The notes below the pieces were generated by a model. That model was given only the letters and a program-made list of their open reading frames with translations, searched no databases and was not told the origin of the DNA. Of a stretch of DNA of 64,000 nt, positions 1 to 16,692 are shown piece by piece. The translations under genes and the position numbers were made by a program. The stretch comes from Desulfobacterales bacterium (GTDB lineage Bacteria; Desulfobacterota; Desulfobacteria; Desulfobacterales; JAHDSC01), in NCBI GenBank assembly GCA_016931455.1, contig JAFGES010000064.1, positions 13,664-77,663 on the forward strand, in the 5' to 3' direction. How positions within the stretch are numbered: position 1 is the stretch's first letter; each line of letters starts with the position of its first letter.

Positions 1-3000
1 CTTGGATATCAGCATTAAGCTGCACTTCTGTGACCGCTGCCGGTACTTCCGTATTGTAAATAGCGTTATATCGGGCTAAGGTATTGTTGATGATCGTTTG
101 CAATACACCTCGCTCCACAGCGCCCAAATCATAAAAATTGGCATACGCCGGATTATTATCCATAGTATCAAACCCGGTGCTGCCGATCATTTGTGCCTTG
201 CCGAAGGAAGCCGGTGTCTGCGAACCGTTACGTAAAACAGCAGGGACTTCACCGTTGGAACCGCCCGCTTCATGTGCCTCAATTGCCAAAATAATTTGCT
301 GTACTGCATGTATAAATGCCGGCATAGCCGGTCCGGCATTACGATAATTCGTGTGAGGGTTAGTCATTGTCGGTGTGGAAAACGTGGGATCCTGCAAAAC
401 ACGTTCCGTATGCCCATCGGCATCAACAGTATCATCGGTACCACCGGAGGCGGTGCATTGAAATTGATGAATCGCTTGGATGGTTTGCGCCATAGCTGCC
501 TGGTTAACATTGGCAACGCCGCCGGCTGCGGCACGCTCTTGCAAATAATCTACTGTGGACAATATGCCTAAATCGTGCAAGCGGTCTTGCACCACGCGAA
601 CATTAGCCTCCTGATTAATGACACCGCCTCTGCCGCCAACGCTACTGGTTATGTTGATATTTTCTTGTAAGGGTAATACGGGATTATTAAGTTTGCGTAG
701 AGTAATGCTCACGGTTTCTATCTGCGCGGCAGCGTGTGCCCGCATGATAACACTACCCCAGGTATTAATGGCCGTGAGCGTTTGTGGGATATTGGCGTCA
801 GGAACAGCCGCGCCACCAGCGGCATCCACCGCTTCTGTACGAAAATGGGTTTGCTCAAGAAACCCCAGATCACGCAAACGGTCTTGCACAGGTCGAACAT
901 CTGCGGGTAAATTATCCCCGCCGGTTCCAACACTACCGGTCAAATCTATTTGGCTAGTGATGGAAAACAACGGATTATTCATACGGGCTAGTGTCGGGTG
1001 AAACGCTTCAACGCGGCCTACCGCGGGTGCAGTTGCAGAGAGAAATTCTTGTCGAAAGCGCGCAATCGCCGCTATGCTTTGGGTAAGATCCGTTTCAGAA
1101 ATGGGTTCATGACCTTCCGGGTCAACCCGTTCAGCTTCATAATGCGCCTGGGTTATAATTCCATACTCGCGCAAACGATCTTGAATCGCACGGCAGTCGC
1201 GCGGATGATTCCAACCCAGTGTACCCACACAAGCCTGCAAACATATTTCTTCGCGGCCGAAAAACAAGGGATCATTAAGGAACTGGTGAGTGACATCATT
1301 GGGCTCGATGATACCGTGTGCTGTCCAATCTTCCCCTATCGCAGCAGTGGGTAATCGCAATACATGTTCTTTAAATTCAACAATGGCTGCGATGGTATTC
1401 GTCAAAACAGCGATATTGACTTCGGCCGCAGCGCTATCGGGATCTTCTGCATCAAATTCCACCTTCTCGCTGTCATAGTGTGCCTGGCTAAGAAAGCCGA
1501 GAGCAAACAGTCGGTCCTGTACCGGACGCACATCACGCCGATGATTGTTTTGCCCGGTGCCGACACCTGCTGAGAGATTAATTTGTGCAGGTTGTTCATC
1601 TGGACTGATGATGACTAACTCGCTTTCCGTTGTTTCATTTTCACCAAACAAACGGCGCCTGTAGGTACGGATAGCCGCGATGGTTTGTGCGATGGTAGAC
1701 GTGTTTGCAATAAGATATCGCGCAGGATTAATCTTTTCATTGTTGTAACCCACATCTGAGAGAATGCGCAACAAATGAAGACGGTCTTGGAGCGCCCGAA
1801 CATCTGATGCCCTATTGGGTAGAGCATGATCTAATAACTCTCCGACGGCACCGCTTAAGTCAATTCTTAACGGATAATTTAAGCGTTCTAATGTTGGGTC
1901 AACCAAATCCACACGCCCTTCTGCCGGTGCATTGACACCTAATACAGTTTCACGGAACCGGCGAATTGCGGCAATCGTATGGGTAAGATCTGTTTCCGCA
2001 ATGGGTTCAGGATGTGGCGTTGCCGTTGGATCAGGTATAGCGGCTTGTTCGTTGTTGTAATCTGTTTGGGCCATTATTTTCAGCTCTAACAAACGCTCTT
2101 GTACCGCGCGTACATCGGCGGGACGATTCTCGCCGTCAGTACCGACACTGCCTTCAAGGGACAAGGACATCTTTCCAAACTGGTAAGGATCGTTGAGTAA
2201 CTCAATGCCGCTAAGGTCTGGGGCAAAACACTTCAAGCTGCCAAACACCACCAAGGTTTGGTAACGGCGGATTGCGATAATGGTTTGCGGAATGGTTAGG
2301 GGATCAATGGGTCCAGCTGCAGTGGTACTGACACGTTCCACGAAGTATTGCGCTTCTGTTAAAAAATGCAATTGATAAAGGCGTTCTTGCACTGCGCGTA
2401 CTTCAGGGGGTGTATTAATCGCAAGCCCCGCCAATCCCCCGGGCACATCGCCCACAGGGTTGGCAAGCCTGATATGCGACAGCGGAAACAACGGATGTGC
2501 GTTTAACATCGTTAACGCCAAACCACCAGGTTGCAGATTAGTAAGTCTGGAACCGAAGCATGCAGTGAAAAAATTATATAAAGCAGTCATTAATCTTGGC
2601 ACTGTTGCGGGGTTAACCGGGCCGGCGCCGACATTAATAGGTTCAGCAGCCATATCAGCTTGTGTTAAACGTCCAAGATATTGCAGGCGGCGTTGCACAC
2701 GACGCAAATCCACGGGATTATTGGCACCACTATGCCCCACTGTGCCGCTTAATACCACTGCTATACGCAGGATTAAGTCGCCCAGATCCTGTGGCTGTAA
2801 CATGTGTGCTTGTTGCGCGGTGATACGTATTGCCCGGCGGGTTTGCATGCTCACTAAGACCAGTTCGAATTCCTCATAAAAGGGCATGCACAATTCAAAA
2901 CGGCCTTCCGCATTGGTTGTGACATCCTCAATAGAATGCCCACCTCGCGTGAATGCACTGACGGTAGCATTAGCAATCGCCTCGCCAATACTATCCACAA

Positions 3001-3793
3001 CGCGACCCCGGTACACCAATTGATCAGCTAAATTGAATTGTTGCACTGCCATAACACTGGGCGCCGCGGGCGCACTGCCTTCTTCTTCGCCGTCAGCAGT
3101 TTCCGGTGTAAACAAGGCTAACAATACTCGCGCATTGCCATGGTCTGTCTGCCTTGCATGCGGTATAACTTCGATCATTTCCCCTTCTGCACTGCCGCTT
3201 ATTTCCAATGTATCGGGCATGACGCTCAGCCAGCGTACCGTACCAGGTGTGGGCGGTTCCACGATTGCGCGAATTCGCGTGGTTTGCTCTGCCACAACCA
3301 TGGGCAATGCCTCTTCACCTTGTTCTTCGCCTTCGCCTGCCTCTGCAGCCTGCTCTGCTTGCGCCTCTTCGGTTTCTTCTGCCACCAATTGAATCGATAT
3401 CTGATACCCCACCGCACCAACCGATAATGGTACACTTGCTTGTACCTCGTCATCGATAACGATATCCAACGCAATATCGGGCTCAGTGCCGGGTGATTCG
3501 CTATTGGCGGCTAAATTGATGAGCCGTCGACTGTCGCCGGTCAACAGGCACGATGTTTGATCCTCGTTATCCTGGAATATTACACGCGGATTTTGCCCTT
3601 CACGTAACATGCGCAAATTTAGACGTACTTGACCGTCTTGTTTATCAGGGGTCCAGTCAACGCCTAAAAACAGTTTAGCCGCTTCCTCACGCGGGAAACG
3701 ATCTGAGCACATGACAATGGTATTGGCCGTCCAACGGTCCGCCCAACACAATGTGCCTCGTTTTACTCTGCCTCTAACTTCTCGGTACGGCAA
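1..3793 (-). CDS. Giant wall-associated protein, 3' end cut by the window edge. It has an acidic N-terminal segment, a CarboxypepD_reg-like segment, 8 tandem ~100-aa PG_binding_1-like repeats, and a possible lysozyme/transglycosylase-like tail.
   Basis: Absent from the ORF track because no stop lies inside the window. The reverse frame is open from 3796 down to position 2 (at least 1237 codons). Candidate starts are TTG 3793 (GAGGA 9 nt upstream) or ATG 3712. The motif D-V-R-x-V-Q-D/E-R-L-x-x-L-G recurs 8 times, each followed by TIxAIxxF and GxVDPxxxTLxxLNxPL. The left end reads AIEAHEAGG...ASFGKAQMIG. Confidence 0.8.
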   Translation of the reverse strand, partial: MPYREVRGRVKRGTLCWADRWTANTIVMCSDRFPREEAAKLFLGVDWTPDKQDGQVRLNLRMLREGQNPRVIFQDNEDQTSCLLTGDSRRLINLAANSESPGTEPDIALDIVIDDEVQASVPLSVGAVGYQISIQLVAEETEEAQAEQAAEAGEGEEQGEEALPMVVAEQTTRIRAIVEPPTPGTVRWLSVMPDTLEISGSAEGEMIEVIPHARQTDHGNARVLLALFTPETADGEEEGSAPAAPSVMAVQQFNLADQLVYRGRVVDSIGEAIANATVSAFTRGGHSIEDVTTNAEGRFELCMPFYEEFELVLVSMQTRRAIRITAQQAHMLQPQDLGDLILRIAVVLSGTVGHSGANNPVDLRRVQRRLQYLGRLTQADMAAEPINVGAGPVNPATVPRLMTALYNFFTACFGSRLTNLQPGGLALTMLNAHPLFPLSHIRLANPVGDVPGGLAGLAINTPPEVRAVQERLYQLHFLTEAQYFVERVSTTAAGPIDPLTIPQTIIAIRRYQTLVVFGSLKCFAPDLSGIELLNDPYQFGKMSLSLEGSVGTDGENRPADVRAVQERLLELKIMAQTDYNNEQAAIPDPTATPHPEPIAETDLTHTIAAIRRFRETVLGVNAPAEGRVDLVDPTLERLNYPLRIDLSGAVGELLDHALPNRASDVRALQDRLHLLRILSDVGYNNEKINPARYLIANTSTIAQTIAAIRTYRRRLFGENETTESELVIISPDEQPAQINLSAGVGTGQNNHRRDVRPVQDRLFALGFLSQAHYDSEKVEFDAEDPDSAAAEVNIAVLTNTIAAIVEFKEHVLRLPTAAIGEDWTAHGIIEPNDVTHQFLNDPLFFGREEICLQACVGTLGWNHPRDCRAIQDRLREYGIITQAHYEAERVDPEGHEPISETDLTQSIAAIARFRQEFLSATAPAVGRVEAFHPTLARMNNPLFSITSQIDLTGSVGTGGDNLPADVRPVQDRLRDLGFLEQTHFRTEAVDAAGGAAVPDANIPQTLTAINTWGSVIMRAHAAAQIETVSITLRKLNNPVLPLQENINITSSVGGRGGVINQEANVRVVQDRLHDLGILSTVDYLQERAAAGGVANVNQAAMAQTIQAIHQFQCTASGGTDDTVDADGHTERVLQDPTFSTPTMTNPHTNYRNAGPAMPAFIHAVQQIILAIEAHEAGGSNGEVPAVLRNGSQTPASFGKAQMIGSTGFDTMDNNPAYANFYDLGAVERGVLQTIINNTLARYNAIYNTEVPAAVTEVQLNADIQ
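570..2720 (-). repeat. Eight tandem coding repeats with a period of about 300 bp (peptidoglycan-binding-like units)
   Basis: The conserved core (plus strand CGCAAACGGTCTTGCAC-like) recurs near 574, 871, 1168, 1503, 1765, 2082, 2368 and 2668. Confidence 0.8.
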
Positions 3794-16580: not shown

Positions 16581-16692
16581 ACTACTCCGTCTTCTGAAAA
16601 AGATTAGGATCATTCACCACGGTTAGAAAAAAGGCACTCTGAAATAGGGGCTTAATTTTTTAAATCAGAATAAATTACTTGATCACTTTTGT

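Follow-up and report, generated by a model that had tools for sequence, protein, structure and literature searches.

Organization of the gene cluster

The locus described here lies at the left end of a 64,000-nt stretch of DNA from a Desulfobacterales bacterium (contig JAFGES010000064.1, positions 13,664 to 77,663), which we call the window. It carries genes for a contractile, phage-like tail together with two giant genes, and is very likely part of a complete contractile injection system (CIS) that lacks a head and represents a separate lineage. An ORF listing with translation confirmed nine co-directional open reading frames (ORFs) on the minus strand, extending from position 16580 to the left edge. 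The last two occupy a position that varies between related loci and is called the slot in this text. The features are:

15483..16580, minus strand: first gene, cap-like protein with a ConA-like domain; 365 aa from the MDLIS start, 376 aa from 16613
14348..15430, minus strand: tail sheath in a minimal form, 360 aa (Pfam, PHROG)
13840..14334, minus strand: candidate tail tube protein, 164 aa (position; weak PF18906 matches in relatives)
13355..13840, minus strand: tail assembly chaperone-like protein, 161 aa (weak Phage_TAC_7 match; position)
12211..13374, minus strand: low-complexity protein, 387 aa (only the C-terminal tail is conserved)
11612..12214, minus strand: tube initiator by predicted fold, 200 aa
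8111..11536, minus strand: predicted tape measure with helical repeats, 1141 aa (position; constancy of length)
3894..8111, minus strand: slot gene 1, NHL-propeller/HExxH protein, 1405 aa (Pfam NHL; alignment of homologues)
4893..5045, minus strand: putative zinc site of slot gene 1, H1023-E-L-A-H1027 … H1054 … E1068-G-W-A-E-Y
1..3793, minus strand: slot gene 2, TTG start at 3793; residues 1-1264 of 1460 lie inside the window

The genes are tightly coupled. A base-by-base check verified the TAATG overlaps at 13840 and 8111, the ATGA overlap at 12211-12214 and a 20-nt gene overlap at 13355-13374, and the remaining intergenic gaps measure 13-97 nt. All ORFs of the window are intact, and no signal peptide or transmembrane helix was found in any protein of the cluster. 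The nine-gene leftward operon had been proposed in an earlier reading made from the sequence alone (hereafter the sequence-only reading), and its coordinates and overlaps were borne out by the ORF calls and the base-level check.

Baseplate genes beyond the left edge

The sequence-only reading had seen the giant ORFs as standing "instead of" spike and baseplate genes, with the alternative that the baseplate genes are located past the left edge of the window. An exact-match search with the 1405-aa protein retrieved a 43.8-kb assembly contig (L001; loci are numbered with the prefix L) whose first 18,111 nt align with the window with zero mismatches, and because of this identity it can be used as a legitimate leftward extension. 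Past the third giant gene, L001 continues in the order hub, spike, PAAR, gp25, Baseplate_J and the start of a protein of ~824 aa. The alternative was thus the correct one, since the baseplate genes follow directly after the third giant on a contig that is 100 % identical to the window. They comprise:

L001: hub, 367 aa (NCBIfam VgrG_rel, 4e-12; PHROG baseplate hub)
L001: gpV-like spike, 211 aa (Phage_base_V)
L001: PAAR protein, 131 aa (2.8e-13)
L001: gp25-like protein, 151 aa (GPW_gp25/Sheath_initiator)
L001: Baseplate_J protein, 600 aa (2.8e-16)

A cyanobacterial homologue of the 367-aa hub matches Phage_GPD. The J protein is identical (100 %) to one annotated in a Desulfobacterales metagenome-assembled genome at NCBI. 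Leftward extension, which the sequence-only reading had recommended as a check, therefore yielded a VgrG/gpD-like hub, PAAR, gp25 and gp6/J; an ATPase was not found on it. The end of the cluster can be read from relatives whose J proteins are 77-86 % identical. Their ~824-aa wedge protein contains a Reg_prop propeller and is followed by three proteins of 470-630 aa and then by unrelated genes on the opposite strand, which mark the end of the cluster. The corresponding three proteins in L004 and L005 are rich in coiled coils and have PHROG matches of the fibre/fibritin type.

We could not find an AAA+ ATPase among the cluster genes of L001, L002, L004, L005, L048 and L049, nor in the 64-kb window. 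Capsid, portal and terminase genes are likewise absent from the extended and relative loci and from the other 47 kb of the window. The flanks consist of ordinary chromosomal genes, both downstream (L002, L004, L005, L049) and upstream (L001, L047), and no holin or endolysin was recognised adjoining the cluster. Among the Pfam annotations of cluster and flanks there was no TssJLM membrane complex, no TssA/F/G/K and no ClpV. The absence of capsid, terminase and lysis genes, noted before for the window's left end, therefore extends to the flanks and to the rest of the window, and a full prophage just left of the window, which had been named as the finding that would overturn the earlier view, was not found: neither capsid nor terminase is encoded in the leftward stretch of L001 or in the relative loci. 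The description as a head-less contractile-tail/CIS-like operon holds, as do the descriptions of sheath, tube and chaperone. Nothing canonical is missing from the system, and it is less strange than first thought.

Conserved proteins of the tail

The sheath is readily recognised by Phage_sheath_1 (PF04984, 1.3e-12), Phage_sheath_1C (PF17482, 4.9e-10) and the tail sheath family PHROG 279 (3e-36). Its best matches among PDB sequences are Afp3 and Pvc3, both weak at ~1e-5, and phage sheaths are found among its nearest database relatives. The 164-aa protein that follows has no above-threshold match of its own, while Phage_tube_2 (PF18906) is matched by 12 of its 23 homologues with a best E value of 5e-5. 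These relatives are 54-96 % identical to the window protein, with a mean column identity of 74 %. The matches in relatives and the position after the sheath suggest, if weakly, that the protein is the tail tube. The 161-aa protein matches Phage_TAC_7 at 1.7e-4, which is below the cut-off, and is placed after the tube, as the chaperone of phage Mu is.

The first gene stands directly upstream of the sheath gene in all loci and occurs in a short form of 155-165 aa or a long form of ~360 aa. The window carries the long form, in which an N-terminal core of ~155 aa is joined to a ConA-like C-terminal domain of ~210 aa that resembles lectins and 3-keto-disaccharide hydrolases. Of 25 homologues, five match PF06439 (best 8e-6) and two match Laminin_G_3 in this C-terminal domain, and comparison with levanase CBM66 gave an E value of 0.005. 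The N-terminal core is a putative tail terminator or cap, a role suggested by its position only: DUF4255 matched none of the 25 homologues, and a single weak match to Phage_tail_terminator_6 was seen among them (E 0.14). Of the "cap-lectin" in the sequence-only reading, the lectin half has accordingly found support in the ConA-like domain (PF06439, CBM66), and the cap half still follows from gene position. If the core is indeed the tail cap, the lectin-like domain would sit at the end of the tail that is distal to the baseplate. No sequence similarity was detected between the tube and Mu gpM or between the first gene and Mu gpK, and searches of the first gene, the tube and the 200-aa protein against PDB sequences gave no useful match.

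Conservation in the 387-aa protein is confined to the last 25-30 residues (…VNEVLVEQAKRHGVDLS), with a C-terminal helix motif of ~25 residues that reads …L(V/I)N(D/E)VLV(E/D)QA(K/R)RHGV(D/N)LS. The homologues differ in size between genomes, mostly ~340-500 aa, with 211 aa in one locus. Relative to the chaperone, the gene is in the +1 (equivalent to -2) frame, which is also the frame of Mu's verified -2 frameshift product. An ATG of its own, with GAGGGA upstream, makes a frameshift fusion unnecessary, although one may still occur. The protein may be an assembly factor. Fused ORFs of chaperone and 387-aa protein, seen in L018, L031 and L035, were rejected as spurious long alternative-frame ORFs in high-GC DNA. 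We noticed more generally that calling the longest ORF in high-GC relatives yields false ORFs of 530-620 aa, rich in Arg, Gly, Pro and Ala, which overlap the chaperone gene.

In the 200-aa protein, a poly-proline linker joins a tube-fold beta domain (residues 1-118) to C-terminal helices; identity across phyla is 53-93 %. An AlphaFold2 model built from 43 homologues reached a mean predicted local distance difference test (pLDDT) score of 66; in the N-domain, means over 10-residue blocks were 70-84, with one block at 53. When this model was compared to the PDB with Foldseek, the baseplate of phage Mu (9ki1) came first, followed by baseplate chains of diffocin, phage Milano and pyocin R2, and further down by Pvc7, Afp7, Alg7 and Streptomyces Cis7, then by tube proteins. 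The matched chains of 9ki1 have 446 and 419 residues and, judged by this length, appear to be gp43 (495 aa). Mu gp43 is a tube initiator composed of a tube-like domain, a flexible loop and a helix-rich domain (PMC11915804). Since the Mu baseplate is the top fold match and the 200-aa protein shares the two-part build of gp43, we take it, on the evidence of its modelled fold, to be the tube initiator. The label "Mu-gp43-N-like" given to it before is thus upheld at the level of fold (AlphaFold2/Foldseek), although a comparison of the two sequences with hhalign gave no similarity. The same reading had listed the protein among those without a match to known tail parts, which is not tenable, as its predicted fold is that of a canonical tube initiator.

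A similar revision applies to the 1141-aa protein, one of the supposedly non-canonical giants. Across 32 loci its homologues keep to 1141.6 ± 15 aa even where sequence identity is down to 20-50 %, and it is a helical protein located between the chaperone and initiator on one side and the hub on the other. PHROG 1272 (tape measure) is matched at 1.6e-15, a value that is partly compositional: a coiled-coil, fibre-like protein of L005 (867 aa) matches this family equally well, so the match cannot be regarded as specific. Position and constancy of length identify the 1141-aa protein as the predicted tape measure. As a rule of thumb, each tape-measure residue corresponds to ~0.15 nm of tail, from which a tail length of ~170 nm would be expected.

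Distribution of the cluster

As a marker of the family, the 200-aa protein proved most useful. It is represented by at least 684 clusters at 90 % identity, all annotated as hypothetical and not covered by a Pfam family. The family occurs in at least eight phyla, across which core proteins are 50-80 % identical. A pattern scan with one genome per species returned 40 loci, with hosts in Desulfobacterota, Cyanobacteria (Nodosilinea, Phormidium, Crinalium, Leptolyngbyaceae), Chloroflexi, Actinobacteria (Gaiellaceae, Rubrobacteraceae), Acidobacteria and Gammaproteobacteria (Marinobacter). According to the ORF and BLAST survey, the invariant order is cap-like protein, sheath (~360 aa), tube (164 aa), chaperone (~157 aa), low-complexity protein, 200-aa protein and ~1140-aa protein, then the variable slot, followed by hub, spike, PAAR, gp25 and J. 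Order and content are conserved in more than 45 loci of many phyla, far beyond what chance could produce. No homologue of the 200-aa protein was found in 50,697 phage records (INPHARED) or in 2.9 million IMG/VR contigs.

One of the loci (L047) belongs to a cultured organism with a complete genome, Teredinibacter turnerae T7901, and lies at 4,104,526-4,125,122 of CP001614.2, around TERTU_3727-3731. The same genome harbors a separate, canonical extracellular contractile injection system (eCIS) at 2.33 Mb (TERTU_22xx, with the AAA+ protein TERTU_2232). TERTU_22xx is among the entries listed in the portions of the eCIStem supplementary tables considered here, and TERTU_37xx is not (PMC8213781). 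In the 2009 T. turnerae genome paper, TERTU_3731 is noted only as an orphan vgrG (PMC2699552). A paper describing the lineage was not found in the literature searched, the coverage of which was incomplete. Since the homologues of the 200-aa protein are all hypothetical and without a Pfam family, catalogues built on Afp/PVC profiles probably miss the lineage.

A variable slot between tape measure and hub

Comparison of the loci revealed that the stretch from tape measure to hub is the sole variable part of the cluster. Every locus carries at least one large slot gene. About 11 loci have a single slot protein of 830-1400 aa, with an M23-peptidase-like C-terminus in two of them (L004, L005). In about 14 loci, from Desulfobacterota, Cyanobacteria, Acidobacteria and others, the slot contains a homologue of the 1405-aa protein, and a second large gene follows this homologue wherever the sequence reaches far enough. 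Other occupants of the slot are:

L025, 14042-17838: 1100-aa RHS-repeat protein with the tip motif HEFGHCLGLGH (metzincin type), then a HEAT-like 160-aa gene
L003: NHL protein with two phospholipase D (PLD) domains
L024 and L002: lipase/PETase-like proteins
L033: subtilase-propeller-TIG protein
L047 (Teredinibacter turnerae): 2564-aa subtilase protein
L028: Metallophos protein

The HEAT-like gene of L025, a locus from a member of the Rubrobacteraceae, is a candidate immunity gene. Compared with hhalign, the single-gene slot type (830-980 aa), the N- and C-termini of the 1405-aa proteins and the N-domain that second slot genes share showed no homology to one another; to judge from these comparisons, the slot holds unrelated protein families.

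Slot gene 1 of the window encodes a conserved N-domain (residues 1-250), one or more NHL beta-propellers (~250-865; Pfam NHL repeats at 4.9e-41), an HExxH metallopeptidase-like domain, and a helical and Ig-like C-terminus. At least 14 loci encode full-length homologues (28-79 % identity), and in each of them the gene follows that of the tape measure. The residues H1023-E-x-x-H1027, H1054 and E1068 are invariant in 12 aligned sequences and were seen again in an alignment of 13, and we regard them as a putative zinc site. Among 1.84 billion proteins, the HExxH domain has only 36 representatives; almost all of them occupy the equivalent position in proteins of 1360-1780 aa that share this architecture, and an independent match (L050) again lies within this cluster context. 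The domain matches no Pfam or PDB family by sequence, and an AlphaFold2 model of the region, based on a shallow alignment of 13 sequences, stayed below a pLDDT of 50. The Ig-like fold at the C-terminus was modelled with confidence, and a fold search with it gave only Ig-like matches.

Slot gene 2 starts with a conserved N-domain (residues 1-257, window 3023-3793), followed by a CarboxypepD_reg-like domain, eight peptidoglycan-binding repeats (window ~344-2716; seven identified by pattern and one by eye) and a 340-aa C-terminal domain that is mostly outside the window. Pfam PG_binding_1 is borderline with 24.3 bits against a cut-off of 23. The earlier descriptions of the two proteins as NHL/metallopeptidase-like and as carrying peptidoglycan-binding repeats hold. 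The C-terminal 340 aa gave no Pfam, PDB or plasmid match, and a lytic transglycosylase identity that had been considered by eye was dropped on these grounds. The N-domain has no known relatives and does not match known loading domains. Across loci, conservation of the second slot gene is limited to the N-terminal 225-260 aa; the C-terminus is exchanged or absent. We found NHL with a lipase/PETase-like domain (L002), a lipase-like domain alone (L024), 1400 residues without assigned domain (L048) and, in L018 and L026, an N-domain without C-terminus (299-343 aa). With its constant N-domain and swapped C-terminus, the second slot gene shows the build of a polymorphic toxin, as far as sequence comparison can tell. 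The repeats suggest the bacterial cell wall as target. Since the cluster proteins have neither signal peptide nor transmembrane helix, Sec export cannot bring these repeats to the wall of the producing cell.

Small genes that look immunity-like follow the slot gene in L002, L050 and L025; there is none beside slot gene 2 of the window. In L002 (6758-7141) and L050 (17913-18293) the gene encodes ~126-127 aa without a domain match and follows a second slot gene of the NHL/lipase type. It could be an immunity protein or a chaperone and has no counterpart at the window locus.

Possible function of the slot proteins

We judge it fairly probable that the region represents the first two thirds of a complete head-less CIS/tailocin-like particle from a widespread lineage, with the two slot giants as its effectors. 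The completeness of the particle and its separate lineage are the firmer part of this explanation; that the slot genes encode delivered effectors has, taken by itself, somewhat better than an even chance. According to this explanation, the genes would build a free particle of fixed length, which would be made and released. Its coiled-coil fibres would bind the target, the sheath would contract and the PAAR-tipped spike would be driven in. The slot proteins would ride with the tip complex, docked through their N-terminal parts at the hub, the spike or the tip of the tape measure. A journey at the tip rather than in the lumen is assumed because the proteins are too large when folded and the lumen is filled by the tape measure. 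Loading would proceed without an Afp15-type ATPase, and the payload of the window locus would consist of a zinc-peptidase-like propeller protein and a peptidoglycan-binding protein, which would point to bacterial targets. The sequence-only reading had offered unusual cargo or unusual anchoring as explanations of the giants. Cargo is now the best-supported reading of the giant pair, and anchoring is less likely, since signal peptides and transmembrane helices are lacking in the cluster proteins.

Several points weigh against delivery. With the tape measure inside it, the tube lumen has no room for folded proteins of 1400-2500 aa, and neither a known loading signal nor a known adaptor came to light. 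Particle formation, cargo loading and toxicity are deduced from the genes alone, and the last three to four genes of the window's own cluster are deduced from relatives with 80-86 % J identity. Enzymatic activity is putative both for the HExxH domain (no Pfam or PDB match, pLDDT <50) and for the 340-aa C-terminus of slot gene 2 (no Pfam or PDB match). The 1405-aa protein is conserved over its full length and is not polymorphic, so it could be a structural, receptor-binding or processing component, and the window locus has no obvious immunity gene beside the peptidoglycan-binding protein. Finally, at least one large slot gene per locus would also be expected if the slot encoded a structural component.

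This last possibility deserves the closest look. The slot proteins might be structural or host-range parts, such as tail-tip or baseplate-attached enzymes or receptor binders comparable to tail lysins and tailspikes, which would hold on to the target envelope and degrade it locally to let the tube through, in a particle that kills by puncture as R-type tailocins do. Such a role would agree with the presence of a large slot gene in every locus, with the many slot domains that are wall-directed or binding (M23-like domains, peptidoglycan-binding repeats, propellers, Ig-like, TIG), with the full-length conservation of the 1405-aa protein in at least 14 loci, and with the location of the slot at the position of Mu gp43, a baseplate protein that also enters the host. 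However, an RHS protein with a protease-motif tip and a HEAT-like neighbour, PLD domains and lipase-like domains are typical of toxins and not of receptor binders, the second slot gene is put together like a polymorphic toxin, and fibre-like coiled-coil genes are already present downstream of the wedge genes. We therefore consider a purely structural role unlikely, while giving it some weight.

The other two alternatives concern the nature of the particle. Gene order as in Mu, a tail assembly chaperone and a tape measure are hallmarks of phages, and phage sheaths are among the nearest relatives of the sheath, so one might think of the tail module of an unrecognised phage or prophage with head genes elsewhere, or of a decaying prophage remnant. 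It is highly improbable that the cluster is either of these: six loci have chromosomal flanks on one side or the other, the ORFs of the window are without exception intact, INPHARED and IMG/VR contain no relative of the 200-aa protein, and the 50-80 % identity of the core over at least eight phyla speaks for purifying selection on a stand-alone module. A diverged eCIS of the Afp/PVC type is an improbable explanation as well, and so is a Streptomyces-like cytoplasmic CIS; in either case the ATPase and the cap would have changed beyond recognition or be encoded elsewhere. Such a system would account for Afp3 and Pvc3 as the sheath's best sequence matches among solved structures and for the PAAR, gp25, J and Afp7/Cis7-fold initiator components. 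On the other hand, neither the cluster nor the 64-kb window contains an AAA+ domain, DUF4255 matches and LysM are absent, hub and spike are separate proteins, as in P2 and Mu, and not a fused VgrG, and a tail assembly chaperone is present. Moreover, the catalogued eCIS of T. turnerae (TERTU_22xx) is a different locus, and TERTU_37xx is not among the listed entries in the part of the catalogue considered.

A free particle that carries the slot giants as effectors is thus the explanation we retain. A more far-reaching proposal is that a CIS lineage spanning phyla has been overlooked by the eCIS, T6SS and tailocin catalogues, with a swappable slot and giant effectors (1,000-2,500 aa; RHS cages, propeller-enzyme fusions) that are loaded through N-modules without an AAA+ protein. 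We put this forward tentatively, as something possible but less likely than not. CISs attract study for their part in microbial warfare and symbiosis and as programmable tools for delivering proteins, and the choice and loading of their cargo are poorly understood. A slot that takes RHS, lipase, protease and wall-directed giants without a loading ATPase would, if confirmed, widen the design space for cargo size and loading, and giants docked at hub, spike or tip without an AAA+ protein would represent a new principle of cargo loading for phage-tail-like injectors. The interest of the cluster thus lies in its breadth, its absence from the single eCIS catalogue checked and its internal slot for giant cargo. 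T. turnerae T7901 carries both the cluster and a canonical eCIS, so that the two can be compared in one organism.

Other genes in the window

The other 47 kb of the window are ordinary chromosome and encode RtcA, CorC, an HD-GYP response regulator, MscS, NACHT proteins, a methylmalonyl-CoA mutase and a Bat operon. Two neighbourhoods may be mentioned. On the plus strand at 32991-38571, the gene for a 1178-aa protein that combines Metallophos, NACHT and FGE-sulfatase domains precedes one for another NACHT protein of 637 aa. This pair lies in the most GC-rich stretch of the window (0.51-0.535 compared to 0.36-0.47 nearby) and could be a defence island of the bacterial NLR-like type. At 48152-56129, also on the plus strand and downstream of the methylmalonyl-CoA mutase gene (42621-44300), there is a Bat-type aerotolerance operon that encodes a protein with BatA N-terminal domain, VWA and TPR as well as BatD.

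Comparison with known contractile systems

The broad features of the CIS class are all present: sheath, tube, hub, spike, gp25-like protein, gp6/J wedge and an initiator assigned by fold, with no capsid or packaging genes. The tail region of phage Mu (gp37-gp49), a tail with a simple baseplate, is the closest in gene order. It shares the succession of terminator, sheath, tube, chaperone, tape measure, hub (gp44/gpD-like), spike (gp45/gpV-like), gp25-like protein, J-like protein, further wedge protein and fibres, and the 200-aa protein has the two-part build of gp43, with the Mu baseplate as best fold match. In contrast to Mu, the cluster is devoid of head, connector and packaging genes and has PAAR in addition. 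The initiator gene precedes the tape measure (in Mu it comes after), its product has 200 aa and no LysM, and the tape measure gene is followed by giant enzyme genes. Comparisons with Mu gp43, gpM and gpK gave no similarity at the sequence level.

R-type tailocins such as pyocin R2 and diffocin are likewise chromosomal and head-less, with a tape measure, a chaperone, a split hub and spike, and fibres, and the fold of the initiator matches chains of both their baseplates. The cluster differs from them by its internal slot with toxin-like genes, by the lack of a lysis cassette seen adjoining it and by a lineage that spans many phyla. Protein cargo is not known from R-type tailocins. Judging from the domains they encode, the toxin-like slot genes argue for cargo.

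With the eCISs of the Afp/PVC type, the cluster has in common the head-less delivery of toxins (proposed here from the genes alone), PAAR, gp25, gp6/J and an initiator with the Afp7 fold. The eight core components of eCISs include the AAA+ ATPase Afp15 and the Afp16/DUF4255 cap (PMC6899500). Unlike these systems, the cluster has neither an Afp15 ATPase nor an Afp7 with LysM, its hub (367 aa) and spike (211 aa) are separate and not fused into an Afp8 VgrG, and a tail assembly chaperone is present. The toxins of eCISs are usually encoded at the 3' end of the operon (PMC8213781), whereas the toxin-like genes are here inside it, between tape measure and hub.

The type VI secretion system (T6SS) offers the nearest parallel for the slot. 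Both have effector-like genes beside hub, spike and PAAR, similar classes of proteins (RHS cages, lipases, PLD, wall-directed enzymes) and a constant N-module with swapped C-termini. In contrast to T6SSs, the cluster has no membrane complex, ClpV or TssA/F/G/K, and it encodes a tape measure, a terminator-like gene and fibres, which suggests a free particle of fixed length. Overall, the system would resemble R-type tailocins and eCISs in its operation, the tail of phage Mu in its gene order and initiator, and T6SSs in the genetics of its effectors.

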